Shown piece by piece: positions 8,248 through 25,320 of a stretch of DNA of 64,000 nt. The notes beneath the pieces are model-generated. The model saw nothing but the letters and a program-made list of their open reading frames with translations, was not told the origin of the DNA and made no database searches. Source of the DNA: an uncultured delta proteobacterium (lineage in GTDB: Bacteria; Desulfobacterota; Binatia; UBA9968); NCBI GenBank assembly GCA_963745835.1, contig CAVUZH010000003.1, positions 608,001-672,000 on the forward strand, written 5' to 3'. Numbering within the stretch: the stretch's first letter is position 1; the number at the start of each line of letters is the position of its first letter. A program made the position numbers and the translations under genes.

Positions 8248-8856
8248 ATGACAAAAAGGGCTTCAATTGGTTTTTTTTTCCTTCTTTATCAGTTGTCCAC
8301 CGTGGCTACCGCTCTGGCGGATGTCTATGTGCATAAGGATAAACAAGGAGTCTTAACCTTCACCAACGTCCCTAATCACAGCGGTTTTCGCCGGGTGATT
8401 CGTGAGTCAATCTCACCATTGCGGGGGCAGACTTATAGACCCAACTTCGAGGATTTTATCATCTCCGCATCCGCTCGCCATAGCATCGACGCAGATTTGA
8501 TTCGCGCTGTGATCAAAACGGAGTCGGATTTCAATTCAAACGCGCGCTCTTCTAAAGGAGCAATGGGATTGATGCAGCTAATGCCTGATACAGCTCGGCA
8601 ACACAATGTTCTTGATGCGTACAATCCACTAGAGAATATCGAGGGCGGTGCGCGACATCTTCGGTTGTTACTCAGCCGTTACCGCGGCAATCTGGAACTG
8701 AGTCTCGCGGCCTATAACGCCGGCATTAACGCTGTTGAAAGACATGGAGGTATTCCTCCGTATGCCGAAACTCGCCAATACGTGCGGCGCGTCCTGCATT
8801 TTTACGACGGCTACCGCGAAACCGGGTTGCAGAACGTCCGGCAGGTGCAGCAATAA
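8248..8856 (+). CDS. Lytic transglycosylase (SLT domain) with N-terminal DUF4124-like region
   Basis: AVIKTES, GAMGLMQLMP, LAAYNAG, ETRQYV; signal peptide. Confidence 0.93.
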   Translation: MTKRASIGFFFLLYQLSTVATALADVYVHKDKQGVLTFTNVPNHSGFRRVIRESISPLRGQTYRPNFEDFIISASARHSIDADLIRAVIKTESDFNSNARSSKGAMGLMQLMPDTARQHNVLDAYNPLENIEGGARHLRLLLSRYRGNLELSLAAYNAGINAVERHGGIPPYAETRQYVRRVLHFYDGYRETGLQNVRQVQQ

Positions 8857-8892
8857 CGCTGCCTTGCACAAACCGTCCTCATTGAGCTTCAC

Positions 8893-9468
8893 GTGGTTTG
8901 GACGTTTCCCAACTTTCTCAGTCTGATCCGAATTCTGATCATCCCGCTACTCGTTTATTTGTTGACGCTGACAGACCGCACTTCGAGCCTGATCGCTGCA
9001 GTTCTGTACTTACTGGCTTCGATAACCGATTACTTCGATGGCTATCTGGCAAGACGCAATAAGAGCGTCTCCGATGTCGGCAAAATCCTCGATCCGCTTG
9101 CAGACAAGTTGATGGTGGCTTCGGCTCTGATCATGCTCGCAGCCATGGACCGTCCGGGCGAGCCGAGTGTGCCCGCCTGGCTGGTGGTCATTATTATTGC
9201 CAGGGAAACCGCTGTCACCATTATTCGCGGCATTGCTTTGACTGAAGGAATCGTCATGCATGCCGAGGCGCTCGGTAAGTACAAATTCATTTTACAATCT
9301 TTCGCAGTGGTGGGTCTTTTGGTGCACTACGCTTATTGGGGTGTCGACTTTTATACGGCGGGAATTTATTTTTTAACGCTGGCAGCTGTGCTCGCGTTAT
9401 GGTCGGGCGTCAATTATCACGTGCAGTTTTTCCGCCTTCGACAGGCTCGCGTCTCCGCGCATAGCTGA
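8893..9468 (+). CDS. pgsA: CDP-diacylglycerol--glycerol-3-phosphate 3-phosphatidyltransferase
   Basis: PNFLSLIR, TDYFDGYLARR, GKILDPLADK; classic pgsA-tRNA-Gly synteny. Confidence 0.95.
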   Translation: MVWTFPNFLSLIRILIIPLLVYLLTLTDRTSSLIAAVLYLLASITDYFDGYLARRNKSVSDVGKILDPLADKLMVASALIMLAAMDRPGEPSVPAWLVVIIIARETAVTIIRGIALTEGIVMHAEALGKYKFILQSFAVVGLLVHYAYWGVDFYTAGIYFLTLAAVLALWSGVNYHVQFFRLRQARVSAHS

Positions 9469-9512
9469 TCTAAATTGACAATATCTCTGGCTTCGTATAA
9501 TTTTTAGATCAT

Positions 9513-9589
9513 GCGGGTGTAGCTCAGTTGGCTAGAGCGTATGCTTGCCAAGCATAAGGTCGGGAGTTCGACCCTCCTCACCCGCTCCA
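9513..9589 (+). tRNA. tRNA-Gly (GCC)
   Basis: GCGGGTG acceptor stem, AGCTCAGTTGG D-arm, TATGC-TTGCCAA-GCATA anticodon arm, GGGAGTTCGACCCTCC T-arm, CCA end. Confidence 0.97.
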
Positions 9590-9615
9590 TCTTTAAGCCC
9601 TTGAGAAATCGAGGG
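9541..9615 (+). repeat. attL: 75-bp direct repeat (tRNA-Gly 3' part plus terminator)
   Basis: Identical to 23952-24026. Confidence 0.95.
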
Positions 9616-9626
9616 CTTTTTCTTTT
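9595..9626 (+). terminator. Rho-independent terminator after tRNA-Gly
   Basis: AAGCCCTTGA-GAAA-TCGAGGGCTT hairpin followed by T-tract. Confidence 0.85.
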
Positions 9627-9769
9627 CTAGTGGAGCAGGGGAGTTATCAACCTCAGAAGCAGGTTTCACTAAGGTTGCACTTTTCTCGATCTGTCTTTCG
9701 ACTCGCGCCAGCCAACAACCGGACGATCATCCAGTTCGTCCCACGCCTCCCCAGCAACGCAACTCAACC

Positions 9770-9851
9770 GGCCGACACCGCAACGCGGCGGCAAAGTGGT
9801 CGACACATGGAGGCCCTCAAGCGCAGCATAGAACAGATGCAGGCCCAATGA
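9770..9851 (+). pseudogene. Ku (NHEJ) C-terminal remnant
   Basis: RGGKVVD-[frameshift]-MEALKRSIEQ resembles the Ku tail motif KVVDLMEALKRS. Confidence 0.55.
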
Positions 9852-9952
9852 CGTATTCTCGCTCCTAAATAAGCCAGGTATGACAGCCTCCAGTGCGTTA
9901 GGCCGGTAGCGATTCACAGTTTCCCTCCTGTAGCGCAGCGACCACTGCTTGC

Positions 9953-10273
9953 CTTACAGCCGCCCGGACAGATATATACCCCGCCTCGTATTGATGCAGA
10001 GAAGATGAGGATGATGCGGTTTTGGGGATGAAGAACGGCTTACCAGAGAATGAAACCTGTAGACACAATACCTCGGCAAGTTCTCATCACACTTAAAGAG
10101 GAACAGGCTTGTCTTCAACTCTGGCTTAAAGATAAGTCGGTTAACGAGGACGTGCGCCGGGACATTGAATGTCTCTAACAAAGATCAGTGAGGCCCTGGG
10201 AAAACTTGCTGCATTGGAGAAAGGAGATGACGATAGCAAAACAGACAGTCGCAAATCTGTAAGACTCAGCGAA
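9953..10273 (+). repeat. Diverged copy 1 of a ~320-bp internal repeat (degraded copy of the 14580-14795 ORF)
   Basis: Aligns by eye with 14484-14806 over its whole length. Confidence 0.9.
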
Positions 10274-10476
10274 GAAAGGCGGGCCACTACGGGGAAAGTT
10301 TGATGACAAATTGTCCGGCGACAACGATGGTGTTTTGATTACATCCGATGCAATCCTCGGTAAAACTGATCTCACAGAGGAAAGTCAAACATGCCTAATC
10401 AGCAGCTGAGGAAAGCCCCATGTTGGACCCAGTGAAAAAACTTGAACGTGAAGCAGTGCTGAAACGCATCCGTGAA

Positions 10477-10665
10477 TTAGATGCTGAGATCGCGCAGCCG
10501 TTGTAGAATACTTTTCATGATTTTAATCTCGCCTTCTAAACTCTTTATCACTTCAGGCGAAGTTGTGGAGTATTCCAATTTCAGTACATGAACCTCGGTA
10601 GAGATTATGCTCAATGAATTGGCCAAATCGTGTGCGAGGCTCTCCAGCTCATTTTTTGAAGCCAC
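10477..10665 (-). CDS. Stand-alone HisKA-like (H-box) small protein
   Basis: LAHDLANSLSII H-box followed by a second amphipathic helix; 62 aa. Confidence 0.55.
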   Translation of the reverse strand: MASKNELESLAHDLANSLSIISTEVHVLKLEYSTTSPEVIKSLEGEIKIMKSILQRLRDLSI

Positions 10666-10751
10666 GCTGTGACAGCCATAAGCATGCCAAATTCCAAAGT
10701 TCGGTTGCTACTTCCAAGAAAGAAGAACGCCCTGTAGATGGTTCAGCCCTT

Positions 10752-10979
10752 TCAGCAACCCGAGACCAGAAAGATCTCTCTTATCATGTAGTGTCTTCCA
10801 AGCTTCGGACAATATAACCTTATGTCTTCTAGCGCGGCTGTATTTGCCGGAGGAGTTTTATTAGAAAATGCTCGTGCAATACTTTGTTTGAAGAGCTCAC
10901 CGGGTAAGCTGACTGCAGTTCCCATCGTATGATTATCACCACACGCATTGCACACGGCCCAAACCTGATACATCACCAT
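10752..10979 (-). CDS. Small putative Zn-binding protein
   Basis: CNAC..H and distal C; GGAGG RBS. Confidence 0.5.
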   Translation of the reverse strand: MVMYQVWAVCNACGDNHTMGTAVSLPGELFKQSIARAFSNKTPPANTAALEDIRLYCPKLGRHYMIREIFLVSGC

Positions 10980-11256
10980 GCGCGCATCCTCCGCCTGAAT
11001 CCAGCTTAAGGAGAAGTCGCGTGCTGTTTCGCCGCGTCAGTCTTTCCGTTCTCTCAGTTACCCTCTTTCACCTGAGCTGTCAACGAAGCGAATGTCGTGC
11101 GGTTTAGTCCAAATTCTTCCCACTACGATTGCACCGAATCACAGACAAACATGTCTATCCCGCCTGCGGGTCTTCGCGAATCAGGCGAAAGTTTCTTTCG
11201 TGCCCCTGCCCTGACAATGATCACAAAGTAATTCTCTGCCCAATTGACCGGCGGCC

Positions 11257-11271
11257 GCAAGGCGTATGCCA
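11257..11271 (-). promoter_or_regulatory. Sigma54-type promoter
   Basis: TGGCAT-ACGCC-TTGC on minus strand, GG-N10-GC. Confidence 0.5.
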
Positions 11272-11562
11272 CAGCACGATTAAACGATTTAATTTTAATA
11301 TAGTGCAGAGCTCAATGCTGGAGAGTCGAGACGTGCCCAAATAGGAGGAGGCGAGACATACTTGGGATAGGCGATCCGAAATCATGCGCGTCAGAGCAGA
11401 ATTGCTCGAACGTCACGGTACGACTACCCTGCATATTCCATCAGGAATCTATCATCATTATTTTTGTCTTGCTTAAACCCACAATCGACAATAAGAGTTG
11501 CGATCGCTAAAAGATCATCGGCCAGCTGGACTTACTGCGTGACATACCAACTGCTCTTAGCC

Positions 11563-11937
11563 GTGGATAAAGATATCGCAAACGATTTTGGTCGTCGAAG
11601 ATGAGGCCGCGAATCTACGATTAATCTCTCTATTTCTTGGGAAGCAAGGTTATCGTGTCCTCCAGGCACGAGATGGTTTAGAGGCTATGGATTTACTAGC
11701 TCAATCAGAGTTGATATTGTCCTGTGTGATCTCAGAATGCCCAGGATGGATGGTATAGCTCTTACGCGGCACATCCTTTCTAAAGTGCCCAATACGCCTG
11801 TGTTGTTGATGACTGCTTACGCAACACAAGATGTTAAAGGCCTGTCAGAACTCCGCGTGCCAGTCGTGAACAAGCCGTTTATGCTGGATCAATTAAGCTC
11901 GGAGATTCAAACTGTACTTAGCTCCCGCGAGATGTGA
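11563..11937 (+). pseudogene. Single-domain response regulator receiver (frameshifted)
   Basis: TILVVEDE...ARDGLEA...DLRMPRMDG...VLLMTAY...KPF across frames. Confidence 0.8.
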
Positions 11938-12188
11938 TCTCGGGGGGAGTGTCATCGCTGGTGTTGGGCTTGACCTTGCCGGTCGTGCAGGTGCCGGTGC
12001 CGATCGCCCAGGCAATGAGGAAGAGATACCGGAGAGATCGCATTGTGTCCTCCAATCACGTGAGAGGCGGGTCCCACGCGGCTGCTCGCTGAGACCAGAA
12101 CTTAGGCTCATCGAGCACTCGTACAAGTCGCAATGTGACCCAAATCAGCGACTAGCATGGTATAGTCGCGGACGACGGCCTTAATCCA

Positions 12189-12320
12189 ATGTGGGCGGGC
12201 GTCCATCGAGTCTTCAAAGACAAACCAGGCGGGCTAGTCGTAGACTATCTTGGACTCGCTGACGAACCTCAAGAAGGCGCTGATCACCTATACCGAAAGC
12301 GGCGGCAACGGAAAGACCGC
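12189..12320 (+). pseudogene. Type I restriction endonuclease HsdR fragment
   Basis: [20 protein letters not shown]-[frameshift][13 protein letters not shown], characteristic of the HsdR C-terminal region. Confidence 0.7.
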
Positions 12321-12415
12321 CTCTTATTTCTGGAAGCCGATTCGCGGGCGCTGGGCCACGGGGCAGCTAAGAAGTCGGCCGGGGCGCTTTTAACGTCGTA
12401 AGCGTCAACCCTTAA

Positions 12416-13402
12416 ATGCCAAAAACACAATCAGTTATATCCGCCAAAAGAGCGGCTAGGATTCAGTTCGTCGAGCCAATGTACCCTCACCTCGTCCAGC
12501 AGCTACCGGACGGCAAAGACTGGCTCTATGAAGTGAAGTTCGACGGTTATCGTTGCCTAGCGGCAAGGGACGCCGCCGGAGTCACGTTGTGGTCCCGGCG
12601 CGGTAATGACTTCACAGCCCAGTTCCCGGCTATTGCCAAAGCATGTGAACTGCTTCCGCCGCGTACGCTACTTGACGGCGAAATAGTAGCCATCGACGAG
12701 AACGGTCGTATATCGTTCAATCTGCTTCAACATCATCGCTCGCGAGCACAAGCATTGTTGTTCTATACGTTTGATGTACTGATCCATCGGGGGATCAACC
12801 TAATCAACGAGCCACTTTCGAAACGGCGTGAAGTGCTGAGCGATATTATGAAACCGCTTATCCCGAAAAGCATCGGTAGTTTCGCTGTCTGAGAGCATCG
12901 AAGCAATACCAGTCGAACTAATTAGCGTCGTCCAAGAGTTCGGCTTCGAGGCCGTCATCGCCAAGTGCAAAGACTCCTGCTACGAGGTCGGCAAACGCAG
13001 CGGCGCCTGGTTAAAGTACAAGGTTAACAAATCGCAAGAGTTCGTTATCGGTGGCTATACGCAGGGTAATCCGCTCGATGCGGTGATCGTCGGCTACTAC
13101 GACGACCAGAAGCTGATCTATGCGGCGAAGGTGAGAAACGGTTTTGTGCCGCGATTGCGTCGTGAAGTTTGACAGAAGTTGAAAGGATTCGAGATCACCG
13201 CATGTCCATTCGTCAACCTACCTGAAAAGAAGCGCACTCAATTTTCGCTCACCCGTGAAGAAATGAAGAATTGCATCTGACTTAAGCCTAGGTTAGTGGC
13301 GCAGATCGAGTTTACCGAGTGGACACCGGATGGTCATCTGCGGCATTCAAAGTTGTCTGTTTGCGATACGACAAAGACCCGCGTGACATTGTGCGGGAGT
13401 AG
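12416..13402 (+). pseudogene. ligD: ATP-dependent DNA ligase (LigD ligase-domain type), disrupted
   Basis: EVKFDGYR, LDGEIV, FDVL, WLKYK, EFVIGGY, VAQIEFTEWT..GHLRH; frameshift near 12865, TGA stops at 13170 and 13278. Confidence 0.88.
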
Positions 13403-13706
13403 CAATACAGCCCTGTTCTTTTCCTCATCCGCAACGATGCAATAGCGTCTACTCCATCGGCTCGTGAGTACCCCTTCGTTGCAATAGCCCTCGCGGTAGG
13501 GGGCAGGGAATTACTTCAGCCCAAGTTCATTGCCTAAGGGGAACGGCTATTTCGCCGATGTGAGGATTTAGATTGACGCCAGATTTTGGTGATGCTATGC
13601 ATTTTTTGGCATCGCTTGTTATTTCTTGTACATTTTAGCTGTCGGCCCGCACCCCGCAAGATGCGTCCATGATTAAACCGAGAAGGCGCCGCAAACGGAA
13701 ACCACG

Positions 13707-13910
13707 GTGGCAATATCAATTGGAGATCCCCAACAGAAGCTCTTGGCTTCAGCTCATTTAGAAGCTGATAAAGAGGAGCAGGAACATATTTGGCGCGAGC
13801 TGCTACAAAAGCAGCTTGGCGAGCATCGGCTAAATCTTTATTGTCCTGAACAACCTCAGAAACAACCAATGCTGGCGAAGATTCGTGGAGATGGAGGCAA
13901 AGCAGCTTGA
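13707..13910 (+). CDS. Small hypothetical protein
   Basis: 67-aa ORF, hydrophilic. Confidence 0.35.
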   Translation: MAISIGDPQQKLLASAHLEADKEEQEHIWRELLQKQLGEHRLNLYCPEQPQKQPMLAKIRGDGGKAA

Positions 13911-13943
13911 CATGTTTTTTCTGCCTAAAATAAGAACCGGAGC

Positions 13944-14027
13944 ATGGATCACTATGAAATATTGCTGTGGGTCATCGCGTTCGCCCTGCCTTGCCTAGTG
14001 GAATGGCTGGTGAACGGTTTCCAGTGA
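13944..14027 (+). CDS. Putative 27-aa membrane peptide
   Basis: GGAG immediately upstream; MDHYEILLWVIAFALPCLVEWLVNGFQ. Confidence 0.35.
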   Translation: MDHYEILLWVIAFALPCLVEWLVNGFQ

Positions 14028-14072
14028 ATACTTCGAGCCATCTGTTTTCTTTCCCGGTTGCTAAATAGCCTG

Positions 14073-14204
14073 ATGCGCGAGAACTGGAAAGATATGCTCT
14101 TTGTATTTGCGGTCGCCGCTCTTGCGTTCCTGATGAATTACTATGTCGTCAGTTACAGAGCTGCTCAGCGACCCGCTGCAGTAATCCAGGAGCGCGGCAA
14201 ATAA
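14073..14204 (+). CDS. Putative 43-aa single-TM peptide
   Basis: MRENWKDMLFVFAVAALAFLMNYYVVSYRAAQRPAAVIQERGK. Confidence 0.45.
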   Translation: MRENWKDMLFVFAVAALAFLMNYYVVSYRAAQRPAAVIQERGK

Positions 14205-14321
14205 CCTACTTCATTTAGTACAGAACCGCCGCCGCTCGATGAGCCTGTCACCATCCCTTACAGGCCAACATCCAAGAAAACGACCGTCACGCTATCTAGG
14301 ATTAGGAGCGCGCTTTCTCGG

Positions 14322-14483
14322 ATGCATAGACGCAAGCAGCCGCTGGTATACGCGGAGGCAAGACGTGACCATCTGCCGCTGGTGCGTGCCGCCGAGAAGC
14401 AGTTCGGGAGTTGGGGTAAGGCGTTGTATGCGGCAGGGATTGACCCAAACTTGTATTATGTTCGTCACAAGTGGCTGCCTTGA
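14322..14483 (+). pseudogene. Fragment with homing-endonuclease-associated repeat motif
   Basis: AAEKQFGSWGKALYAAGIDP matches the FGSWxxAL.AAG repeat pattern. Confidence 0.55.
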
Positions 14484-14806
14484 CTTACAGCCGCCCGTAG
14501 AGATATATACCCCGCCTCGTACTGACGCAGAGAAAATGCGGATGACGCGTTTCTGGGAAGAAAACAGGTTAATTAGAGGATGACATCCACAGACACCGTG
14601 CTTCGGGAAGTTCTCGTCATACTTAAAGAGGAACAAGCTTGTCTTGAACTCTGGTTTAAGGATAAGTGGGTTAACGAAGACGTGCGCCGGGGCATTGAGA
14701 TCTCTCTAACAAAGATCAGTGAGGCCCTGGAAAAACTTGCTGCATTGGAAAAAGGGAATTGTCATCGCCGAACAGAAAGTCCGGCAAACCTGTAAACCTC
14801 AGCGAA
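14484..14806 (+). repeat. Copy 2 of ~320-bp internal repeat
   Basis: Aligns with 9953-10273. Confidence 0.9.
14580..14795 (+). CDS. Small helical hypothetical protein (intact copy inside the repeat)
   Basis: 71 aa, two amphipathic helices; paralogous broken copy at about 10049-10262. Confidence 0.55.
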   Translation: MTSTDTVLREVLVILKEEQACLELWFKDKWVNEDVRRGIEISLTKISEALEKLAALEKGNCHRRTESPANL

Positions 14807-15135
14807 AGCTAGGCAGCATTACCCGTCGAACTTAACCTCGTAAAGCCAGTCTCATTCAGGCGCATCGCCTTTTATTCGTTAACGCAAACCTTCAAAATGT
14901 TAAAAAGTTCCGGCGGGCGTACTCTTGCGCATTGGGACGATCATGCTTGCGCATAAGACGGAATTACAATTTGGATTCAATGGACTTTATCCTAAGAGTA
15001 GCCGCGCTTGTGGAGCATTATCGGCTCTGGTTCTTTGGTTTCGCCATAATCGCAAATTCTCCCTTTAACGATTAAGAAGCTGAAATCAATTTCAATGTCA
15101 CTGGCAAATTGTGAGTCCGCTTAGCAGCGTACTCC

Positions 15136-15498
15136 TTAGTATTCTCGTTGGCGCTTCATGCGCTGCAGCTCTTGCCGTTGACGCTCGACTTCAGCCTGGT
15201 TCGCTTGGATCTGCTGCTGTTGCTGCTGATTGGTATTTTCTTGACCTTGTAGTTGATCGCCGACCAACGCCCCAGCACCTAGCCCGAGGACTCCGCCGAT
15301 AGCAGCTCCAGCACCAGTATGTCCAACCGCACTTCCGATCAGCGCTCCAGCACCTGCACCTCCTACTGCACCTATCCCTGCGCCCTTTTCTCTTGTCGTG
15401 AGTGATCCGCCAGAACAGCCGCTTATGACCACGAACACGATTAGTTCAATCACGAACAAGGACGATCTGTGACCTAGTATCGATCTAGATATTTTCAT
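15136..15498 (-). CDS. Glycine-zipper lipoprotein
   Basis: ISGC lipobox, GAGIGAVGGAGAGALIG glycine zipper, Gln-rich coiled coil. Confidence 0.85.
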   Translation of the reverse strand: MKISRSILGHRSSLFVIELIVFVVISGCSGGSLTTREKGAGIGAVGGAGAGALIGSAVGHTGAGAAIGGVLGLGAGALVGDQLQGQENTNQQQQQQIQANQAEVERQRQELQRMKRQREY

Positions 15499-15626
15499 GG
15501 TTTTTACCAGGGGCTCCTTTTATGATTTTTCGAGAGAACTAAGGTGGGCTTCGTCAGCACCTTTATCTTTCCTATAAAGCCAATCTAGTACACATTCCTA
15601 TTCCTTTGCCGCCAGCAATTGAGCTA

Positions 15627-16202
15627 CTAATGCGACGATCGCGTCCAAGTTGTGCCATTCTGCCATTCGATCCGATCGCGTTTGACATCGCCTCTTAATC
15701 CGCCCTCCCAATCCAAGGCGCGTATATCGCCATCATGATCTGTTTGTAATCGGGTCGTATGGCCCCGCTCGTTTCTCGCCTGAAGTCCGTCACGAGAAGA
15801 TATGATCTCAACGCGCTTGCGGCTATCGCCGTTCAGATACCACGTCCCGGCCAAATTCTGGCCACGAGACGGCGTTCGCGTCCACATCGTCCCATTGGCC
15901 CATTCGATTCGATCCCGTTTAATATGCCCGCGCAGTCCACCCTCCCAGTCGAGAGCGCGGACATTGCTGCCACGAGTTTCCAACCGGCTGCTATCGCCAT
16001 GTTCGTTTCTAGCTTGAAGGCCCTTGCGCGACGAATGGATCTCAACAGGCTTCTGCCGTTCGCCATTCGAGTACCATCTACCCACTAAGTTCTCTTCACG
16101 CCCATCCGCTCTCCCTTTGCCATAGGGCTGGGCGGAAGCCACACAAGGAGCAGCTAAAAGAGCGGACAGCACACCAACACAGACCAACTTTATTTGTCTC
16201 AT
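15627..16202 (-). CDS. Secreted protein with two tandem ~73-aa beta-rich repeats
   Basis: Signal peptide; repeats NL.G.WY.NG...ALDWEGGLRG..KRDRIEW.NGT.WTR; strong RBS. Confidence 0.85.
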   Translation of the reverse strand: MRQIKLVCVGVLSALLAAPCVASAQPYGKGRADGREENLVGRWYSNGERQKPVEIHSSRKGLQARNEHGDSSRLETRGSNVRALDWEGGLRGHIKRDRIEWANGTMWTRTPSRGQNLAGTWYLNGDSRKRVEIISSRDGLQARNERGHTTRLQTDHDGDIRALDWEGGLRGDVKRDRIEWQNGTTWTRSSH

Positions 16203-16697
16203 GCTTTCCTCCCTCAGAGATCCCCCAGGACAATCTACCGACTACTCTCCGCTGCGCCGATCTTAAAAGTCTTTCCGATTAGCTTAGTGAAGCAGCCGCC
16301 GATGTTTCCTTTGGTAACTCCAATGATCGGCGAGCCGTCGGCAGTGACTGAGCGGAGGGACTACGTGTGGCGTACCGACGCACAGCAATTCCCACTGTCA
16401 AAACCAATCTATATAGCGACATTCTTTGCTCATGGGATCACCGGAGTTACCCGTTGGTCTGTAAGCGCAAGGAAAATGCCAGGGTAAAATCTGCCGTTCA
16501 ATGGGGATTGATTGATCTTGTGGAAGCGTACGAGATTACGTTCCGATCAACCCATTACAGATCAGTACGCCGTCATACAACCTGAGCGAAGTTGCCACGG
16601 CAATTCAGACAAAAATGTTCGTTCTCCGGTGAAACACCCGGCTAGTGAGGGTTAGTTCCGGGTATCTTCTTCGTGATTTGTCTTTCTGCTCCTAGCG

Positions 16698-16712
16698 GGG
16701 CACGGCTGTTGC
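16698..16712 (+). promoter_or_regulatory. Sigma54-type promoter
   Basis: GGGCAC-GGCTG-TTGC upstream of the 16860 ORF. Confidence 0.4.
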
Positions 16713-16859
16713 TGTTTGCAGTTTGCCTAGTGCCGAGGGGCTTGGCGTTTCCGGATCGATCCAATGCGGCGAAGGAGGCAAATAGGAGCGCGAGCGCAGC
16801 CGTTAACAATTTGGCCGAAAAAACGTCTTTCAGTTCAACTGGAACAGAGGGAGCGTTTT

Positions 16860-17024
16860 ATGAAGGATATCTTGGGCACACTAATGGCGGCTCTTCTCGT
16901 TATCTTGTCTTTGATTACGTTGCTCAGGGCGGAACACAATTGGGAACCTAGCAACGAGCCGGTCCTCCGCAACACCGAAAGAGTTTCGGATCTCGGTCTG
17001 CGGTTGGCCTTGAAGAACCATTAG
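16860..17024 (+). CDS. Small single-TM protein
   Basis: GAGGGAG RBS; MKDILGTLMAALLVILSLITLL... Confidence 0.55.
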   Translation: MKDILGTLMAALLVILSLITLLRAEHNWEPSNEPVLRNTERVSDLGLRLALKNH

Positions 17025-17514
17025 TACGAATCCCTTAGATCCACTCCGAAGAATAGCCCTCGCAGCAAGTATTTAACCGGAAGACGCGAAAGACCGCGCA
17101 AATGGCACTGTCTAGCTTTAATCCGACGCGAGTTGAGACCTAACGTCTTTGATGGGTAACGCGAACGACTTTGCCATCATCGCGTAATTTTTTCTCTGCC
17201 AACTTGCCGAACCGACACGTTTATTACCTCCGACTCCACGAAAATGCCTTCCTTTATTCTGGTATAGGCGTTGCGCACATATCGCACTCGACGTTGATGC
17301 TATGAACTGATTACCCCAAGTGGTCACCATGGGTGTCAGGGAGCAAATGGTGAAACCGGCAACAGTCGCGGTCGCTTACTTTGCCTCCCTAAACCCTTGG
17401 TCGTTCACGGGGAATGATCCATCTGCACAACAAGCATCAACGGCATAAAGCCGCGTCGAACCCGGTTTATAGGGAATTTTGAGACGGCTGACGTAGCAGG
17501 CGAATGTTATTTAG

Positions 17515-17952
17515 GTGGTTAACATGCAGCAAACCTCAACGAGAGCGTTTTTATTGGTTGCACTTAGTTTGGTCCATCTGAATGGCTGCGCTGCTCCTTT
17601 GGCGCTGACTCTTCTCGGCGTGGGTGCCGGCGTAACAACCGGTACAGCAGTTTCATACACTATGGACGGGATTGCCTACCGAACTTTTACAGCACCCCTT
17701 CCACAGGTCGAGCGGGCTACGCTAACGGCGCTAAATGATATGGGACTGGCTATCGAGGGCACAGAGAAGACTGACGAAGGAAAAGCGATAAAAGCCAAGG
17801 GACTTGAGCGTCAGATCGAGATTGAACTACAGGCCATAAGCTCCAAGACGACCCGAATCCGCACGGTTGCCAAGGATGGAATATTTTTTAAAGACCGAGC
17901 GACTGCTACGGAGATCATTTTACAGACCGAAAGAATTCTTGGAAAAGCGTAA
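17515..17952 (+). CDS. DUF3568-like lipoprotein
   Basis: LNGC lipobox, Gly/Ala segment, C-terminal alpha/beta domain ending D.ATA.EII. Confidence 0.75.
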   Translation: MVNMQQTSTRAFLLVALSLVHLNGCAAPLALTLLGVGAGVTTGTAVSYTMDGIAYRTFTAPLPQVERATLTALNDMGLAIEGTEKTDEGKAIKAKGLERQIEIELQAISSKTTRIRTVAKDGIFFKDRATATEIILQTERILGKA

Positions 17953-17970
17953 ATACAAAGGAGGTTATCT

Positions 17971-18795
17971 ATGAAAAAAGTCCCCCACTTTTTTGCGATC
18001 GCCGTTTCGTTAGTGATCGTGGCAGCGGCTCCGGCACCGAACTTTGCTCAGACATCTTCTGGGAGTAGCACGCCAGCGACCAACATCAGCAATGACTACA
18101 GCTACTTCCTTAAGAACGTTGATTCGAAGCAGGTCGTAAACGACCTTAGAAACGGGCAGTGGACCACCACTACTACAGACCCTCAGACGAATGTGTCGAC
18201 GACCACTACCGAGGCTCTTCCAACCGGGAAGATGGGATTCGGAAATGTGAAGATTTCCTTGGCTCTAGCCCAGGAGAGCCTAAGGCAGCAAAACATCATG
18301 CAACCGACATCTGAGCAGCTTCACACCTCTTTGGTGGGCGGGCAGATGGTTCCGGGCGACTCCACGACCACGACCAATGGCATTCTCCAGATGCGCGCCG
18401 AAGGAATGGGTTGGGGACAAATTGCACAAAAGTATGATGTCAAACTTGGTCAGCTCATGAGCGGCAAGCAGCCTGCGTCGACGACAACTACCAGTACGAC
18501 GAGTACGACTACGACCAGCAGTGGAAAGTCGTCGACTACCGCGACAGGTAAAGGCAATGGCAAGGGCATTTCCGGAAGCAATTCTCAGGAAAACGGAATT
18601 GTCAGCGCCTCGGGCCGGACCTCCGGCACATCCTCTAGTTCCACGAATCAGGGTGGCCGCGGCATTGTGAGCGGGTCCGGTCGATCCGTCGGCCATACCA
18701 GCGGGATTGTTACTGGGGCCGGCAATGGGCATCAACATGGCGCATCGGGAGGTGGTCAAGGTAACAGCGGAGGACATGGCAAGGGTCCGAAATAG
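17971..18795 (+). CDS. Secreted low-complexity (Thr/Ser/Gly) protein
   Basis: Signal peptide, MGFGNVKISLALA, MRAEGMGWGQIA, Gly-rich tail; strong RBS. Confidence 0.85.
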   Translation: MKKVPHFFAIAVSLVIVAAAPAPNFAQTSSGSSTPATNISNDYSYFLKNVDSKQVVNDLRNGQWTTTTTDPQTNVSTTTTEALPTGKMGFGNVKISLALAQESLRQQNIMQPTSEQLHTSLVGGQMVPGDSTTTTNGILQMRAEGMGWGQIAQKYDVKLGQLMSGKQPASTTTTSTTSTTTTSSGKSSTTATGKGNGKGISGSNSQENGIVSASGRTSGTSSSSTNQGGRGIVSGSGRSVGHTSGIVTGAGNGHQHGASGGGQGNSGGHGKGPK

Positions 18796-18825
18796 CGGTC
18801 AAGTCTAATAGAGGAGAAAAAAACC

Positions 18826-19140
18826 ATGAATGCTACTTTTATAAAATTATCAGCTGTGGCAATTGCGTTCAGCATGAGCGTGGCGATTCCGGCCGCTTAC
18901 TCACAAGGAAAAGGGAAAGGTAAAGAAAAGGGAAAGCAGAACGTCGATGCAAAAGAGAAACATGGCCGTGAGGCGGGCGAACTTCCGCATGGTCTTGAAC
19001 AGTTCTCCGAAAAAAAGGGCACCCTCCCGTCAGGATTGCAGAAAAAGAAGGACGACGATGGGACGCTTACGCACGGTCTCGATGGTGGTGGCAAGAAGCT
19101 AGACTTGACCACCAAAGGGAAAAAGGTTTCCAAAAAATAG
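18826..19140 (+). CDS. Small secreted Lys-rich protein (LP.GL repeats)
   Basis: Signal peptide, KGKGK, LPHGL/LPSGL/LTHGL. Confidence 0.75.
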   Translation: MNATFIKLSAVAIAFSMSVAIPAAYSQGKGKGKEKGKQNVDAKEKHGREAGELPHGLEQFSEKKGTLPSGLQKKKDDDGTLTHGLDGGGKKLDLTTKGKKVSKK

Positions 19141-19354
19141 TCCGGCACATCCTAATGGAATGGACTTCCATGGTGATGTGAATTGCTTGAGCGCTGCATC
19201 CCGGAAAAGACCAACTGCGCCAGAATAATGTGTTTTCTGAGTTGTGTATTCCCGGCGTGCAACCCGCGGCGTAAAAAACTTATTCAGAACACCGGGTACC
19301 GTGCGGAAAGGTGCGTCGGTGTTTTTTTATTCAGCCGAGTTTAGGTCTGATATT

Positions 19355-19369
19355 TGGCACCGCCCATGC
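19355..19369 (+). promoter_or_regulatory. Sigma54-type promoter
   Basis: TGGCAC-CGCCC-ATGC, GG-N10-GC, ~50 bp before ATG at 19422. Confidence 0.5.
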
Positions 19370-19421
19370 GGTCATCAAACGAGAGCGTACGAAGTCGCCA
19401 TATCGGTCTGAGGGAAGCTCT

Positions 19422-19691
19422 ATGCTCGTCATTATTGGACTCGCGCGCACTGACTATGACCAACTGCTGCAGAACGTCCCTCCCGAGGCTCCAGCGTTTA
19501 CGGTTCTCCGCCGCTGCCCCGAACTCGCCCGATGGGGACGTGAAGAACCGCTGTTCAAGTGCGTGATCATAGAGTGCAATCCAGACGAAGCCACACTGCT
19601 TTTAGAAGCCGCTAAGCAGCATTGTCCGGAAGCCGTGCCGAACATTGAGTACGGATTTAAACTCTCACGGAACTTCGCCGTGTTCAGTTAA
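19422..19691 (+). CDS. Hypothetical protein
   Basis: GAGGGA RBS; 89 aa. Confidence 0.6.
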   Translation: MLVIIGLARTDYDQLLQNVPPEAPAFTVLRRCPELARWGREEPLFKCVIIECNPDEATLLLEAAKQHCPEAVPNIEYGFKLSRNFAVFS

Positions 19692-19765
19692 GCTTACTTG
19701 CCCAAGAATGATAAGTAGCTTTCCTATAGATCGAGACCGCTAAAACGTTACCGTAGGAGGAAGTT

Positions 19766-20023
19766 ATGAATGACCTATTAACTTTATTTGGCGCAATCAC
19801 CGCCGGTTTCTATTTCGTCATGTTACTTACCCCCGCCTTTGCGGCCAGGAAGCTCAAGACACCTCATGCATCGTGGATTTTTTGGGGCGGACTTCTGTCC
19901 GGCACCATGTCCCTGGTGTTTCTTTCTTACCTCAAGATGTGGGTGGTGTTTTTCGCGTGGGTCGGCTTGATGGTCTGGGCTGGATCCGATGTTCAAATTA
20001 GAAAAGGCGAAGCGATAGACTAA
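19766..20023 (+). CDS. Small membrane protein (about 3 TM)
   Basis: AGGAGG RBS; hydrophobic segments. Confidence 0.65.
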   Translation: MNDLLTLFGAITAGFYFVMLLTPAFAARKLKTPHASWIFWGGLLSGTMSLVFLSYLKMWVVFFAWVGLMVWAGSDVQIRKGEAID

Positions 20024-20169
20024 ATTCTTTGAGATAGCGCGCCACTCCATCCGCTGTATTGCTGACGCTGGAATGTCATTACAAGACGCTTAGTTTAAGA
20101 AAATTGGAGGAGCGCGCGGTATATCAGCGTATTCTGGATCCCACGGCACATCGCACCCCGGGTTCCCAG

Positions 20170-20310
20170 CCACTCACCATTCCCGACACCTTGACGCTGC
20201 CTGAGAAGCGAACCCAGCAAGTGCCGGCTGTCGTTCCGTCCCACGGCACTGGCGGTATCGACGGTCGTGCTGCATACCACGCGATCGCTCGACGTCGATA
20301 TCTTGACGCC
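20170..20310 (+). pseudogene. Dienelactone-hydrolase-like fragment
   Basis: LTLPE....VPAVVPSHGTGGIDGR resembles the PAVV..HG.GG motif; rest of gene missing. Confidence 0.4.
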
Positions 20311-20381
20311 AGACGTTTTATAGACCAGCCTTTTACCTATGGCCCTCAAATCTGCAGAAAGCGCGTAGAACAGAAAGCTCG

Positions 20382-21026
20382 ATGAGAACCAATGAGCAGT
20401 GGTTGCGGGCCCTTAGAACCGGCGGGGCTGAGCAGGAAGAAGCGCTCAAGGATTTGCGCCAACGCCTTATTAATGGCATGCGGGCTTATCTGGCCGAAGA
20501 TCGCAGCTATAAGTCAGGCCGAGGATCAGAGGAGGCCAGACAAATTGTTGAAGATTGCGCTCAAGAGGCGCTTTTAATTATCAAGCGAAAAATCGATACA
20601 TTTAGAGGCGAAAGCCGATTCACGACTTGGGCCACAACGATTGCGATCCGAAGGCTTCTAAGCGAGCTAAGACGGCGACAATGGCACGAGCTCTCGATTG
20701 AGGAATCCGCCATTGGTCATGATCTTCCTGACCGGCCGGTAGAGCCTCTGCAATCCGGCAATCCTGAGATGGCTCTTCAACAGGATGAGGTCTGGAGTCT
20801 GCTCAAGCAGATCGTTGAGAAGGACCTCACTTCAAGACAGCGGTTCGTTTTGATCGCCAGTGCTTTTCAAGGGATGCCATTGGACCTGATCGCCGCGAAG
20901 CTCGGGACCAATCGCGACAACGTATACAAGATCCTCCATGACGCACGCAAAAAGCTGAAGGTCTGCCTGACCAAGCGGCGTATTACCTTGGAGGAGATTC
21001 TGCAGACTTTCGAGGTCAAAAAGTAA
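20382..21026 (+). CDS. ECF RNA polymerase sigma factor
   Basis: EDCAQEA, FRGESRFTTWA region 2; LT.RQR..L, IA.KLGTNR.NVYK..HDARKKL region 4. Confidence 0.92.
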   Translation: MRTNEQWLRALRTGGAEQEEALKDLRQRLINGMRAYLAEDRSYKSGRGSEEARQIVEDCAQEALLIIKRKIDTFRGESRFTTWATTIAIRRLLSELRRRQWHELSIEESAIGHDLPDRPVEPLQSGNPEMALQQDEVWSLLKQIVEKDLTSRQRFVLIASAFQGMPLDLIAAKLGTNRDNVYKILHDARKKLKVCLTKRRITLEEILQTFEVKK

Positions 21027-21073
21027 GAATCGGTTTCGATGGAATTCCACACGGAAGAGAGCAGATAAATATT

Positions 21074-21316
21074 GTGACGCGGGAAAAATTCAAATGGTTA
21101 GTACGAAGCATCTTTGCCGTCCAGGACGAGGAGATGCTTTGCTCCGAGTTTTTTGACATCCTTCCTCGCTATGTCGATCTTCAGCTTGAGAGAAAAGATG
21201 TAGACAAGCTTTTACCAAACGTAAGCCACCATCTCCAGCAATGCCCTGAGTGCAACGAGGTTTATCAAGCGCTCCTTCAAGCAGTCCAATCAGAAAAAGA
21301 GCCTGAAAAGACGTAA
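21074..21316 (+). CDS. Zinc-finger (HxxxCxxC) anti-sigma factor
   Basis: HLQQCPEC ZAS motif immediately downstream of the ECF. Confidence 0.85.
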   Translation: MTREKFKWLVRSIFAVQDEEMLCSEFFDILPRYVDLQLERKDVDKLLPNVSHHLQQCPECNEVYQALLQAVQSEKEPEKT

Positions 21317-21403
21317 GATCTCTCCGTCTGGGCGCATCTAACTCTTGTCGTAGTTCGTAAACCTCTTCCAACTCCTAACCTGTAATTTCAGGAGGTCAGG
21401 TCC

Positions 21404-22750
21404 ATGAAGCGATATGGGATAGTCCTCAGTGCAGCTCTTTTTATCGTCTTCATCCTTGCTTATATTTTTCAAGGGTTTACGGCCCCCAGCGCAGCTCAGA
21501 CGGAGCCACTTTCTCGGTTTGATCGTGTAATCCTCAACAGCGTGCGTCACAGGATCGACGAAGGTCGGCAGATTTTCCGTTTTGACACTTTCGGTGATGA
21601 AGGCTTCTGGGGGGAGACGCTTAAACTCCATTTAGCCATTGAAGGGGCAAACCTTGGCGGCGTTGGACCGGGTCTTAGCCCGAACGCAGCGCTCTCATTG
21701 GGATTGAAAGTTGATGCCGATGCACTTCCGGAAAACATCGTCGCTAGTCTCAAAGGCGGCAAGCTTGACCTCAATAACCCTGCTACCACGCTCGCGCTTC
21801 TCAAGCTCAATGCCGTTGTCGGCTTGACCGGTTTTTTCGACAACTCTGGAAGCCTACAGTCAGTTGGTATTCAGTGCGCCTTGTGTCACTCGACAGTCGA
21901 TGATTCTCTTGCCCGAGGTATTGGTCATCGGCTTGATGGTTGGGCAAACCGTAACCTGAATGTCGGTGCTATCATGGCCCTCGCTCCTGATCTGAGCGCG
22001 GTCGCAGGCCTTCTTGGTGTCGATCAGGAAACAGTGCGCAAGGTGCTCAACAGTTGGGGACCGGGGAAATTCGACGCCGAACTGTTTTTGGATGGGAAAG
22101 CCTTTCGCCCAGACGGAAATTCCGCGGCCACACTCATTCCTCCTGCTTTTGGACTTGCGGGTGTGAACCTTCACACGTGGACCGGATGGGGTTCGGTAAC
22201 GCACTGGAACGCTTTTGTCGCCAATCTCGAAATGCACGGAAAGGGGACATTCTTCGATCCGCGCTTAAACGACCCGCTACAATTTCCAATCGCCGCCGCC
22301 GCAGGGTTCGCAGACGTACGGAGTGATCCCGACCTGATAACTTCAAAACTTGCCGCTCTCCACCTTTATCAGCTCGCCATCCCTGCGCCAAAGCCGCCGA
22401 AGGGTAGCTTCGATGAAGCAGCGGCCGGCCGCGGGGAAGTTCTCTTTAATGGCAAGGCGGATTGTGCTCGTTGCCATGTGCCACCGCTCTTTACTGAGCC
22501 CGGTTGGAATATGCATACGGCAGAGGAAATCGGCATCGATGACTTTCAAGCCAACCGAGCGGCTGATCGTCGCTACCGGACCTCACCCCTTAAAGGACTT
22601 TGGACGCACCAAACAGGAGGGTTTTACCATGATGGGCGTTTTGCGCTTCTGCGGGATGTTGTCCAGCATTATAACGAATTTTTCGGGTTAGGACTGGGCA
22701 CCCAAGACTCTAATGATTTAGTCGAGTATTTGAAGTCACTTTCCGATTGA
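21404..22750 (+). CDS. Secreted di-heme c-type cytochrome (bCcP/MauG/RoxA-like superfamily)
   Basis: Signal peptide; CALCH and CARCH; YRTSPLKGLW..GGFYHDG...DLVEYLKSL. Confidence 0.85.
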   Translation: MKRYGIVLSAALFIVFILAYIFQGFTAPSAAQTEPLSRFDRVILNSVRHRIDEGRQIFRFDTFGDEGFWGETLKLHLAIEGANLGGVGPGLSPNAALSLGLKVDADALPENIVASLKGGKLDLNNPATTLALLKLNAVVGLTGFFDNSGSLQSVGIQCALCHSTVDDSLARGIGHRLDGWANRNLNVGAIMALAPDLSAVAGLLGVDQETVRKVLNSWGPGKFDAELFLDGKAFRPDGNSAATLIPPAFGLAGVNLHTWTGWGSVTHWNAFVANLEMHGKGTFFDPRLNDPLQFPIAAAAGFADVRSDPDLITSKLAALHLYQLAIPAPKPPKGSFDEAAAGRGEVLFNGKADCARCHVPPLFTEPGWNMHTAEEIGIDDFQANRAADRRYRTSPLKGLWTHQTGGFYHDGRFALLRDVVQHYNEFFGLGLGTQDSNDLVEYLKSLSD

Positions 22751-23891
22751 GCAAAAGTCCTGGTCAGTAAAGCTCACGATCGAGAAGTCATCTCAGGTCG
22801 TAGCCAGGCAGTAGAAAACGGGCGACTCCTCTTACCGGCAGATAGCCCCAACGGTACCCAGCAGTCGAAGCTGCGGTGTAACCTTGACGGAATGGGGGCC
22901 TAACAACGCGCCCGGATCGGTGCACGTCATCGTGGACGTTAGATGATGCAGATTACGGGAGCTAAATGACGCGCTATGCTAAACAATCATAGTAAGGGCA
23001 TGTTGCCCAAGTGTAGGTTTCACTCTGCACATTCGGGTGAGGGACGGAGCATACAAGGAACGGCACAAATGAACGTGTGCCAAAGGTTGCACCAATTCCA
23101 ACCGCAATAGTTCCATAATGGAACTGGAGGAAATCGCGGGAGATTAGCACTAAAGATAAGATCGAAGCGCATCGATTAGAGCCCATGACGGCGCGTTAGG
23201 TTCTAGTTACGATTCGGCTTTTGGATGGCATTCAACTGAGCTTCGGTCAGCATACCTGAGCATGAGACGTGTCGTTAGACCTCGCCCGCGGCTGCGCCTC
23301 TCCTCGATCTGTAATTGTCTCCAACTTGTCTCCAAATCCAGATGCAACGGCATGAACTCAGGGGTAAAGAAAGCTGGGCGGACCTATGATTCTCAGGGTT
23401 GATTTGTCGCTGAATCCTTGCTGTTCAGGCTTGCGCCATTCTTCGGATCTGAGGTAAACCGAACGAGATCTCTGCGGAATAGCCGCCGGGCACCTTGTCA
23501 AAACAGACGGTTTGTCGGTACTCCGGCCGCGGTGTAAACGTGAGGAGAAGTTCCTTACGCTCGCAAATCAACAAAGGTCCAAAAAAAAATTTCCGCGGCA
23601 TAGACCCGATTCACGGATGTATTTGTGAGAAGGGAGGAGGAATGACATGCAGTGCTTTACAGAGGGGCCCCTTCGTCAAAAGGGGAGGTGGCTTAGCCAT
23701 TTGGCTCAGGGGAACCCTTTTTGGTTCCACAGACGTTTTGCGATTGGTAAACTCCGTGGGCAAGGTTTTGCCGATACTACGAAGTCAAAAACCTGAAGTG
23801 CAACGTTGCACTTTTCCAGGGTCTGAAGGGGTTCGATTAGGGACATTTCGGGATAGCCATCTGCCAGCTTAATAGCGTAACCTGCTAGGCA

Positions 23892-23904
23892 GATCAAAAG
23901 GTTA
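23892..23904 (+). promoter_or_regulatory. IHF-like site beside attR
   Basis: GATCAA-AAGG-TTA versus consensus WATCAANNNNTTR, ~50 bp from attR. Confidence 0.4.
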
Positions 23905-23951
23905 CGTTTGGGTTCGCAGGGTTAACATTAGCGAGCCTTTTTGTATCGCCC

Positions 23952-24026
23952 ATGCTTGCCAAGCATAAGGTCGGGAGTTCGACCCTCCTCACCCGCTCCA
24001 TCTTTAAGCCCTTGAGAAATCGAGGG
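23952..24026 (+). repeat. attR: duplicated tRNA-Gly 3' fragment plus terminator
   Basis: 75-bp identity with 9541-9615; lacks the tRNA 5' half. Confidence 0.95.
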
Positions 24027-24097
24027 TTTTTTTCTTGTGGCTATACTCGGCTGAAGCTGTCGAAGCTAGGCTTTCCATTCTTCGGTCTCACCCATCT

Positions 24098-25320
24098 ATG
24101 AAGTTCAGTGCCACCGCCCGGCCCCTCGCCGCACTCTACAGCAGTACATTTTTATCCGGCGCGTGGGCAATGGTCATCCCAACTATTCCTGTCATCGCTC
24201 GGGAGTTTGATGTATCGGCGGGTGGCGCGGCACAGATTGTGACGGCATTTGCGATCGGCAAGTTCGTCGGCACGATGGTAGCCGGGATAGTGCTGGATCG
24301 TATGGGAACACGCGTGGGGCTCATTGCCGGACCTTTAGTGGCTAGCGTGGCATCGTTTGCAACTGTGATCGCGCCTTGGCTGAGCGCGATCCTCTCGCTG
24401 GTGCTGGTAATGGGGGCGGCGGACAGCCTCTGGTCAAGCGCGCGCGAGATCGCCGGAATCGATTTCGCGGATCGCAAACAGCGCGGTCGAGTGCTGAGCA
24501 GCCTGCATGGCACCTACAACATGGGCGCGGCCGTATGTCCACTGCTCGGTGGTTGGCTTACGGACAGGTTCAGCTATAAAGCGGCGTTTATTGGCTATGC
24601 TGTCGCCACCGCGATTGCGGTTGGACTGGGATTCGTGAGCCGGGAATCGAGAAGTCCGACGTTGGCGCCAGCGAACGTCAAGCAGAATGGAAACTGGGGA
24701 TTTAGGCGGTTACGACACCTACTCCACGGCCTCGGAGGATTGTTGAGAGAAATACGCCCAGATCTAAGATCTACCTATCTGGCTCTCGTGCTCGCCACCG
24801 TGGCCAGTCAGTCGCAAAGAATATTGTTGCAGAGCATACTGCCGATCTATGCCGGATTTTATCTCCAACTATCGCCGACTCAGATCGGCATGCTTTTTTC
24901 TATTTCGGGTATCATAGTTTTCGCGATGATTATTCCCGCAGGCTTGGTTATGGATCGAATAGGGCGAAAGTGGTGCACGGTACCGAGCACCGGAATTCCA
25001 GCGCTCGTATTTCTTCTGATCCCGCTGACGAGTAGCTTCACCCAGTTATCATTCTCGTAGGATTGTCGGGTTTGGCTCAAGGACTCTCACTGGGATCGAT
25101 CGCGACTTCGACGTACGATGTGGTGCCTTCGCACGTGCGTGGAAGGTTGCAAGCGGTACGGCGAACCATCGCGGAGTTGGGCAGTGGCCTTGCCCCACTG
25201 ATCGGCGGCTATCTCGCGAACACTTACAATCCCGGTGTGCCGTTTCTGGTATATGCGCCTCTGCTACTTTTTTCTGCCGCACTTCTCGGGATAGTCGGTA
25301 AAGAGACGCTCGATCGGTGA
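24098..25320 (+). CDS. MFS transporter (frameshift near 25050)
   Basis: GIVLDRMGTR and GLVMDRIGRK motif A repeats; about 12 TM over two ORF pieces. Confidence 0.88.

Follow-up and report, generated by a model that had tools for sequence, protein, structure and literature searches.

An approximately 14.4-kb island in the tRNA-Gly gene of an uncultured soil bacterium, probably the decayed remnant of an integrative element

The tRNA-Gly locus and the ends of the island

A 64,000-nucleotide stretch of an uncultured delta proteobacterium of the Binatia (GenBank assembly GCA_963745835.1, contig CAVUZH010000003.1, positions 608,001 to 672,000; hereafter the window, with the genome designated G000) carries an island of ~14.4 kb in a tRNA-Gly gene of this soil bacterium. 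An initial annotation, made from the sequence alone, had described an island without an integrase, bounded by a perfect 75-bp direct repeat that runs from the anticodon stem through the terminator and serves as its attachment (att) sites. The island is site-specifically integrated in the tRNA gene, and the insertion is real and well delimited. The features that define the site are as follows.

8893 to 9468, + strand: pgsA-like gene (CDP-alcohol phosphatidyltransferase; PF01066, E 7.8e-38), left flank, outside the island
9513 to 9589, + strand: intact tRNA-Gly(GCC), its 3' part inside attL (ARAGORN; Rfam RF00005, 67.8 bits)
9532 to 9702, - strand: 3'-terminal remnant of a tyrosine integrase gene, ~56 codons plus stop (tblastn)
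9541 to 9621, + strand: attL copy of the repeat (tRNA positions 29 to 77 and terminator; hairpin 9595 to 9618 plus T tail)
23798 to 23951, + strand: right (P) arm adjoining attR, matching at 75 to 79% identity the stretch on the left side of the att copy of a relative (G007, contig C99)
23952 to 24032, + strand: attR copy of the repeat, a partial tRNA without its 5' half (hairpin 24006 to 24029; C-to-T change at 24027)
24098 to 25320, + strand: major facilitator superfamily (MFS) transporter gene, frameshifted in this assembly (PF07690, E 4.3e-34), right flank, outside the island

The tRNA-Gly(GCC) gene is the only tRNA in the window, and ARAGORN called none at attR; the position of the pgsA-like gene beside tRNA-Gly is conserved in relatives. 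A repeat search returned a direct repeat of 81 nt (9541 to 9621 versus 23952 to 24032) in which 80 of the 81 positions are identical and the first 75 nt are perfect, bearing out both the 75-bp repeat and, to within one position, the identity of the att sites given in the initial annotation. Read by eye, the repeat begins within the 5' strand of the anticodon stem (tRNA position 29) and reaches 32 nt beyond the tRNA end, covering a terminator-like hairpin and T tail in both copies. The sole mismatch, C at 9616 versus T at 24027, lies in the terminator stem. Two copies only were found in the whole 7.28-Mb assembly, both at the ends of the island. No special mechanism is required to explain identical att sites next to decayed cargo: the tRNA constrains attL, attR is just 81 nt long with one change, and deletions and frameshifts quickly disable DNA that is not under selection. 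Within the island, ~80 nt of left arm and the 154 nt of right arm are conserved with relatives. Internal degenerate copies of att or of the arms were sought in the island as a test for tandem accretion, and chance-level matches of 9 to 13 nt (E of at least 0.19) were all that was returned. An integration host factor (IHF)-like site had also been placed beside attR, at 23892 to 23904. That site does not stand out: it is one of 42 one-mismatch matches, versus 42.9 expected by chance, and the consensus WATCAANNNNTTR, which is that of Escherichia coli, has no exact match in the window.

A total of 40 relatives were searched (41 genomes including G000 itself), among them seven of the same genus, with the flanks at 8250 to 9625 (left) and 24033 to 25400 (right) as queries. 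Tallies over the relatives include G012 and G018, which are flagged as unpublished; no specific claim rests on either. An empty pgsA-tRNA-Gly-MFS site, which the initial annotation had proposed looking for in relatives, was found exactly in three of the seven same-genus genomes (G001, G004, and G006), with flank identities of 95 to 97% on the left and 93 to 94% on the right. The left flank ends at 3013 and the right flank starts at 3010 in G004:C22; the corresponding positions are 397008 and 397005 in G006:C13 and 4819 and 4821 in G001:C171. These junctions read left flank, tRNA, terminator, right flank, with zero intervening sequence, and the precision of the empty sites in three genomes therefore establishes a true site-specific insertion. 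Elsewhere in the genus, the site of G005 holds a ~0.9-kb scar with the MFS gene immediately after it; partial tRNA copies stand just upstream of the MFS gene in G003 and G007, on contigs whose start is ~1.2 kb further up; and the tRNA-Gly site of G002 was not located in the flank search.

Public metagenomes contain the same DNA. A total of 20 public runs from eight studies, all of soil or rhizosphere, contain the interval 9300 to 12300 or part of it, and Logan contigs from four studies carry island DNA at 99% identity or more. Four runs (X1, X4, X5, and X10) yielded contigs with island segments at 0 to 5 differences per piece. Those of X1 and X4 span from 23309 into the att site, as far as 23981, and an X1 contig stops exactly at 9541, a break that is expected if att has two left contexts. 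The k-mer contigs of Logan break at the 81-nt repeat and cannot bridge it, so that gaps there prove nothing; when excision or circle junctions were sought, none of the 11 listed contig joints from these four runs, in contigs unable to bridge the repeat, linked 96xx to 240xx. For an attP or another right junction, an exact 30-nt pattern over the border of the right arm and att had no match in Joint Genome Institute (JGI) metagenome contigs, and a 19-nt left-arm pattern matched seven JGI loci, of which one (L150) is a scar of the G005 type and the other six are unrelated. The left-junction type also occurs in G005 and one JGI contig, and the right-junction type in G007. Base 10827 of the window is absent from all public contigs that cover it (X1, X4, and X5; X10 gives no cover there). 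The difference at 10827 is either a strain difference or an assembly error, and dropping the base reopens no longer frame.

The integrase stump and the same site in relatives

The initial annotation had called for a frameshift-aware search for integrases in both island and genome. A stop-tolerant six-frame search with PF00589 gave 15 matches genome-wide, all of them outside the window. Likewise, all 231 stop-to-stop frames of at least 40 aa between 9590 and 23951 (142 + 89) were without any recombinase, transposase, or relaxase family in Pfam. The absence of a recombinase from the island holds to this extent; it does not extend to the left boundary, where the remnant of an integrase gene occupies 9532 to 9702 on the minus strand. 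By tblastn, the stretch at 9702 to 9580 (-) is 63% identical over 41 aa to the C terminus of the integrase of G054 (E 2.4e-10) and 47% identical over 32 aa to a remnant in G077; against the intact integrase of G021, identity is 86% over 29 aa. The frame continues through att to a stop at 9532 to 9534, and beyond 9702 homology ends and the frame is closed; ~27 of the ~56 codons lie outside the repeat. Because this remnant resembles integrases lying directly against that tRNA in relatives, the integrase gene has been lost by deletion save for its last ~56 codons. The earlier proposal that the island has lost its integrase is accordingly upheld: the stump survives antisense at attL, and in relatives this tRNA carries integrases of that kind, whether full or frameshifted.

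In this integrase family, the final ~30 codons of the gene (29 in G021) are the antisense of the att core, that is, of the tRNA 3' half and terminator, and the integrase gene therefore lies directly against the tRNA. The stop codon of the integrated form falls in the host part of the tRNA (9532 to 9621, minus strand; L025:9990-10079), from which it can be predicted that the C-terminal tail of the integrase would differ between the integrated and the excised state. The nearest homologue of the G021 integrase in G000 lies on contig C13, at 40% identity and with a TGA stop and a frameshift; it is a pseudogene and the only detectable homologue of that type in this genome. Best matches among deposited phage integrases were no more than 31% identical, and 10 pattern matches to integrase relatives in IMG/VR yielded none that was confirmed.

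Relatives show the same site at different points of integration and decay. G021:C247 has a full tRNA-Gly and, 9.8 kb from it, a partial copy from the same boundary, and an intact 453-aa open reading frame (ORF) with Arm-DNA-bind_2, SAM_3, and Phage_integrase domains abuts the full tRNA. Partial tRNA copies from this boundary (query 1291 to 1301) number nine, in 7 of the 41 genomes (G000, G003, G007, G008, G017, G019, and G021). In G054 and G076 the tRNA-adjacent integrase is frameshifted and spread over three frames; in G077 only its C terminus is left, and in G005 ~92 codons with an internal stop. A minimal unit of 2.7 kb, made up of tRNA, integrase pseudogene, and att, is present in G054. 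In G007:C99, a right arm resembling that of the island, a copy of att, and a left arm that also resembles the island's follow in series, with a degenerate att and the MFS gene ~0.9 kb further on, an arrangement that reads as a tandem (accretion) architecture at the same locus. The integrase stumps of G000 and G005 have different end points and therefore decayed independently. Across the family, this locus is a hot spot for both integration and decay.

The whole island was not found in the 40 relatives or at other sites, where scattered segments at 70 to 90% identity were all that was present. One stretch of reshuffled cargo-like segments, G005:C87, was considered as the island of the G005 tRNA-Gly site and rejected, as that site holds its own ~0.9-kb scar running into the MFS gene.

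Cargo: a decayed left third and an intact-looking right two thirds

The left third of the island, from ~9.6 to 14.5 kb, is gene wreckage. The following features were delimited there.

9831 to 9887, no strand assigned: 55-nt fragment of the 3' end of a SRAP-family gene, with 86 to 88% nucleotide matches to four other sites in the genome
9832 to 10276, + strand: repeat module A, a frameshifted copy of a 71-aa ORF and its upstream region (frame break at 10169)
10477 to 10665, - strand: histidine-kinase fragment, HisKA only (PF00512, E 7.9e-6, just under the cut-off)
11543 to 11934, + strand: response-regulator pseudogene with start lost and one frameshift (PF00072 in two frames)
12416 to 13442, + strand: ATP-dependent DNA ligase pseudogene (PF01068 and PF04679 pieces in three stop-to-stop frames)
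14475 to 14806, + strand: repeat module B, with an intact 71-aa ORF at 14580 to 14795 (repeat search)

Two of the four sites matching the SRAP fragment lie at the 3' end of SRAP-like ORFs, one of which was checked (PF02586, E 1.7e-73). No kinase domain to accompany the HisKA fragment was found in any frame with Pfam. Compared with a paralogue in the same genome, the response-regulator pseudogene aligns as two tblastn pieces, and its ATG has become an Ile codon. The ligase pseudogene is interrupted by a frameshift near 12870 and, between 13169 and 13281, by one or more in-frame stops; copies 80 to 83% identical occur in the genome and the genus, some of which look like full ORFs. A lost start codon and an in-frame stop are atypical of assembly error, which argues that the decay is real. 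Module A is 86% identical to G000:C16:472079-472525 and ~83% identical to module B, whose 71-aa ORF had no match in Pfam, NCBIfam, or PHROGs. The ~450-nt module, a conserved upstream region plus the 71-aa ORF, thus occurs three times in the genome at 83 to 87% identity (9832 to 10276, 14475 to 14806, and G000:C16:472079-472525).

Elsewhere in the genome, genes of the kinds whose fragments fill the left part of the island (SRAP, Ku, ligase, and response-regulator genes) lie a few kilobases from other tyrosine-integrase matches on contigs C13 and C14 (L045 to L047: G000:C14:199400-202500, C14:431500-434600, and C13:765600-768700). This arrangement suggests a family of integrative elements with DNA-repair genes.

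The initial annotation had described much of the cargo as decayed. That description fits the left third and does not fit most of the interval from 15.1 to 22.8 kb, which consists of intact-looking ORFs; by our own sum, such ORFs cover ~41% of the island. The features of the right two thirds are listed below.

15136 to 15498, - strand: glycine-zipper lipoprotein gene (PF13488, E 2.2e-7; partial match to NF053611)
15627 to 16202, - strand: 191-aa secreted protein with an internal duplication and no assigned function (ORF and translation)
17287 to 17370, + strand: candidate class II cyclic di-GMP (c-di-GMP-II) riboswitch upstream of the lipoprotein operon (RF01786, E 4.4e-9)
17515 to 19140, + strand: three-gene envelope operon (DUF3568 lipoprotein, PF12092, E 2.2e-9)
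20382 to 21026, + strand: extracytoplasmic function (ECF) sigma factor (PF04542/PF08281; TIGR02937, 86.5 bits)
21074 to 21316, + strand: putative zinc-finger anti-sigma factor (weak matches: zf-HC2, E 0.0054; TIGR03988, E 5.5e-5)
21404 to 22750, + strand: 448-aa protein with two CxxCH motifs, distantly MauG/di-haem peroxidase-like (TIGR03791, E 2.5e-7; NF040606, E 7.3e-7)

The envelope operon encodes the DUF3568 lipoprotein, a 274-aa Ser/Thr-rich secreted protein, and a 104-aa Lys-rich secreted protein. Both family matches of the 448-aa protein are far below their cut-offs, and the gene for the 191-aa protein has DNA copies ~77% identical in the genome and the genus. When 16 cargo proteins were compared with PHROGs, only sigma-factor and low-complexity matches were returned and no phage or satellite function; the general PHROGs and NCBIfam scans of the cargo likewise gave no mobility, phage, or defence function (PADLOC was not run). 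The riboswitch candidate scores 51.9 bits, versus a gathering score of 53.5, over the full length of the model. It is one of three c-di-GMP-II candidates in the genome, all just under the gathering score at 47 to 51.9 bits; the others are at G000:C3:1379746-1379830 (-) and G000:C22:108103-108184 (+), and further candidates are at loci L128 to L145. All 18 copies fetched from relatives match the full model, three of them above the gathering score, and candidates of this riboswitch class thus seem widespread among the uncultured soil bacteria of this family.

Nearly all cargo pieces have DNA copies 70 to 90% identical elsewhere in the genome and the genus. The segment 17105 to 19135, with the riboswitch candidate and the operon, is closer: it is 96% identical to G000:C22:107923-109950 and 90% identical to a locus on G004:C73, and the C22 locus is itself syntenic with G004:C73 over 7.5 kb at 89.7% identity. 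The segment was therefore copied from, or homogenized with, the host locus, or it came from a very close donor.

Interpretation and comparison with known systems

We consider it probable, at roughly 0.8, that the island is the decayed remnant of an integrative element. Given the anatomy of the ends and what is established for such elements, it would have entered the 3' half of tRNA-Gly(GCC) by means of its own arm-binding tyrosine integrase, and an attP carrying the tRNA 3' half and terminator would have restored a complete tRNA at attL, with an incomplete copy remaining at attR. What followed is seen in the sequence: the integrase gene was removed by deletion, with the last ~56 codons kept, and decay progressed, heaviest in the third beside the lost integrase. 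The neighboring 5 kb has been reduced to remains of kinase, response-regulator, DNA ligase, and SRAP genes and of a small repeated ORF, and the distal 9 kb retains its intact-looking genes. In its present state the island should be unable to excise by itself and would move only with a matching integrase from a related element. The integrase remnant marks descent from an integrative element, and nothing points to conjugative or mobilizable ancestry. The island is an ordinary decayed genomic island, of a known kind and at an ordinary stage of decay.

Several observations weigh against this reading. The guanine-plus-cytosine (GC) fraction is 0.46 to 0.55 inside the island and 0.50 to 0.59 in the flanks, without a sharp step. 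No intact progenitor of the element was found in the 40 relatives, in JGI contigs, or with IMG/VR patterns. It could also be that the remnant comes from a small element of earlier date and that the present cargo arrived afterwards; the 96% match of 17105 to 19135 to the C22 locus is in keeping with a later gain or with gene conversion. The assembly shows at least two single-base differences (at 10827 and in the MFS gene) that may be errors, and some of the single frameshifts in the cargo are then possibly unreal. An integrase supplied in trans might still act, to judge from att copies that are nearly intact and arms that are partly conserved, and the genome, which is 97% complete, holds other apparently intact tyrosine recombinases of unassigned specificity.

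In a first alternative, which takes in the mobilization in trans offered as one reading by the initial annotation, the island is a working hitchhiker, of the kind of a satellite or a cis-mobilizable element (CIME). A related element's integrase would excise, move, and reinsert it, whether in trans or following tandem accretion at the att site that they share. The near-identity of attL and attR, the arm DNA conserved with relatives, the tandem array of G007:C99 at the same locus, and the repeated use of the site across the family are all consistent with this, and CIMEs are defined and documented as being mobilized by integrative and conjugative elements (ICEs) in the accounts cited here (PMC5704250, PMC6323972). 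However, an intact integrase to match was not found in this genome, where the only homologue is a pseudogene, and the whole island occurs in 0 of the 40 relatives searched, with scattered segments of 70 to 90% identity only. No relaxase, oriT-type, conjugation, phage, or satellite gene was found in the Pfam frames or with PHROGs, and the different end points of the G000 and G005 remnants give no sign that an integrase-less element has spread. The identity of attL is enforced by the tRNA, and one change in the 81 nt of attR fits a young insertion without calling for any function. We therefore regard a working hitchhiker as unlikely. The same judgment applies to a broader proposal in which the pgsA-tRNA-Gly site is a shared docking and exchange platform, where integrase-less islands with working att sites would be moved in cis or in trans by carriers of the att-overlapping integrase and would capture host operons between visits (such as the riboswitch-lipoprotein operon, 96% identical to C22). 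It would amount to CIME-type gene shuffling in an uncultured phylum, and we hold it to be improbable.

It is also possible, at rather longer odds, that the space between the att sites is a sink: after a small, integrase-only element had decayed, host genes would have been copied in by ordinary recombination, and most of the cargo would never have traveled. A minimal tRNA-integrase-att element of 2.7 kb does exist in G054. The segment 17105 to 19135 resembles the syntenic C22 locus (96%) more than the G004 orthologue (90%), nearly all other cargo pieces have DNA copies 77 to 87% identical in the genome and the genus, and GC content is host-like. The same pattern would follow, though, if the donor belonged to the same species group, and the 96% could reflect gene conversion between the two copies. 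The right arm is DNA of the element's type, which G007 shares, the cargo joins it with no internal att or repeat boundary detectable, and neither an insertion mechanism nor a junction repeat was found. The initial annotation had offered a landing pad for small genes as one reading of the island; the 2-kb segment at 17105 to 19135 is the one hint in that direction. Least credible of all is a repeat-induced misjoin or binning error in the metagenome-assembled genome. The assembly is in 25 contigs with 9.33% contamination and possibly contains single-base errors, but both junction types recur in independent assemblies (the left in G005 and a JGI contig, the right in G007), the X1 and X4 contigs continue out of the right arm into att, the unitigs end precisely at 9541, and the integrase remnant runs seamlessly out of att.

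As the probable decayed remnant of an integrative element, the island can be set beside three known kinds. It shares with classical tRNA islands of the lambda/P4 type an insertion in the tRNA 3' half, a repeat at the far end, an integrase beside the tRNA, and empty sites; the arm-binding N-terminal domain is seen in the integrase of the intact relative G021. The marks of a tRNA genomic island are present in that a 3'-tRNA direct repeat stands at both ends, the tRNA is intact at attL only, and empty sites exist, but an integrase gene of its own beside att is not, the ~56-codon 3' remnant standing there alone. Unlike in classical islands, moreover, the integrase has been cut to these ~56 codons, and the reading frame of the family enters the att core antisense to the tRNA. 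Phage satellites as described carry their own integrase, replication, and helper-interference genes. Like satellites of the P4-like or phage-inducible chromosomal island (PICI) kind, the island is small, occupies a fixed chromosomal att site, and would need a helper to move; unlike them, it yielded no integrase, replication, helper-interference, or packaging gene of its own with PHROGs and Pfam.

In streptococci, CIMEs are described as decayed derivatives of ICEs or of integrative and mobilizable elements (IMEs) which retain attL and attR, have lost the recombination genes, and are mobilized by ICEs (PMC5704250, PMC6323972). At the level of its sequence, the island matches this definition: the att ends are retained, the integration and excision genes and the transfer genes are lost, and no relaxase or type IV secretion system (T4SS) family was found in any frame. 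It is like CIMEs, as these sources present them, in having both att sites and neither integration nor transfer genes, in lying at the 3' end of a conserved target, and in the tandem array of G007. It is unlike them in that no relaxase or T4SS remnant was found and the host belongs to an uncultured soil lineage. What the locus offers is a clean, well-bounded example, with an exact insertion point, an empty site, an integrase stump, and relatives at different stages of integration and decay, and it comes from a soil lineage known only from metagenomes. If the island were in fact still mobilizable, hitchhiking of the CIME type, as the cited accounts describe it, would be extended beyond streptococci.

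Two features of the right flank remain to be mentioned. To the right of the MFS gene and its neighbor, positions 26142 to 28689 of the window (~2.5 kb) are without an ORF of at least 150 aa and may be another decayed or variable stretch. The frameshift of the MFS gene itself, near 25045 to 25057, means that the gene is a pseudogene or that the assembly has a homopolymer error; the gene has one base fewer there than in G004 and G006, whose orthologous frames are open from stop to stop over 435 and 421 codons, respectively.

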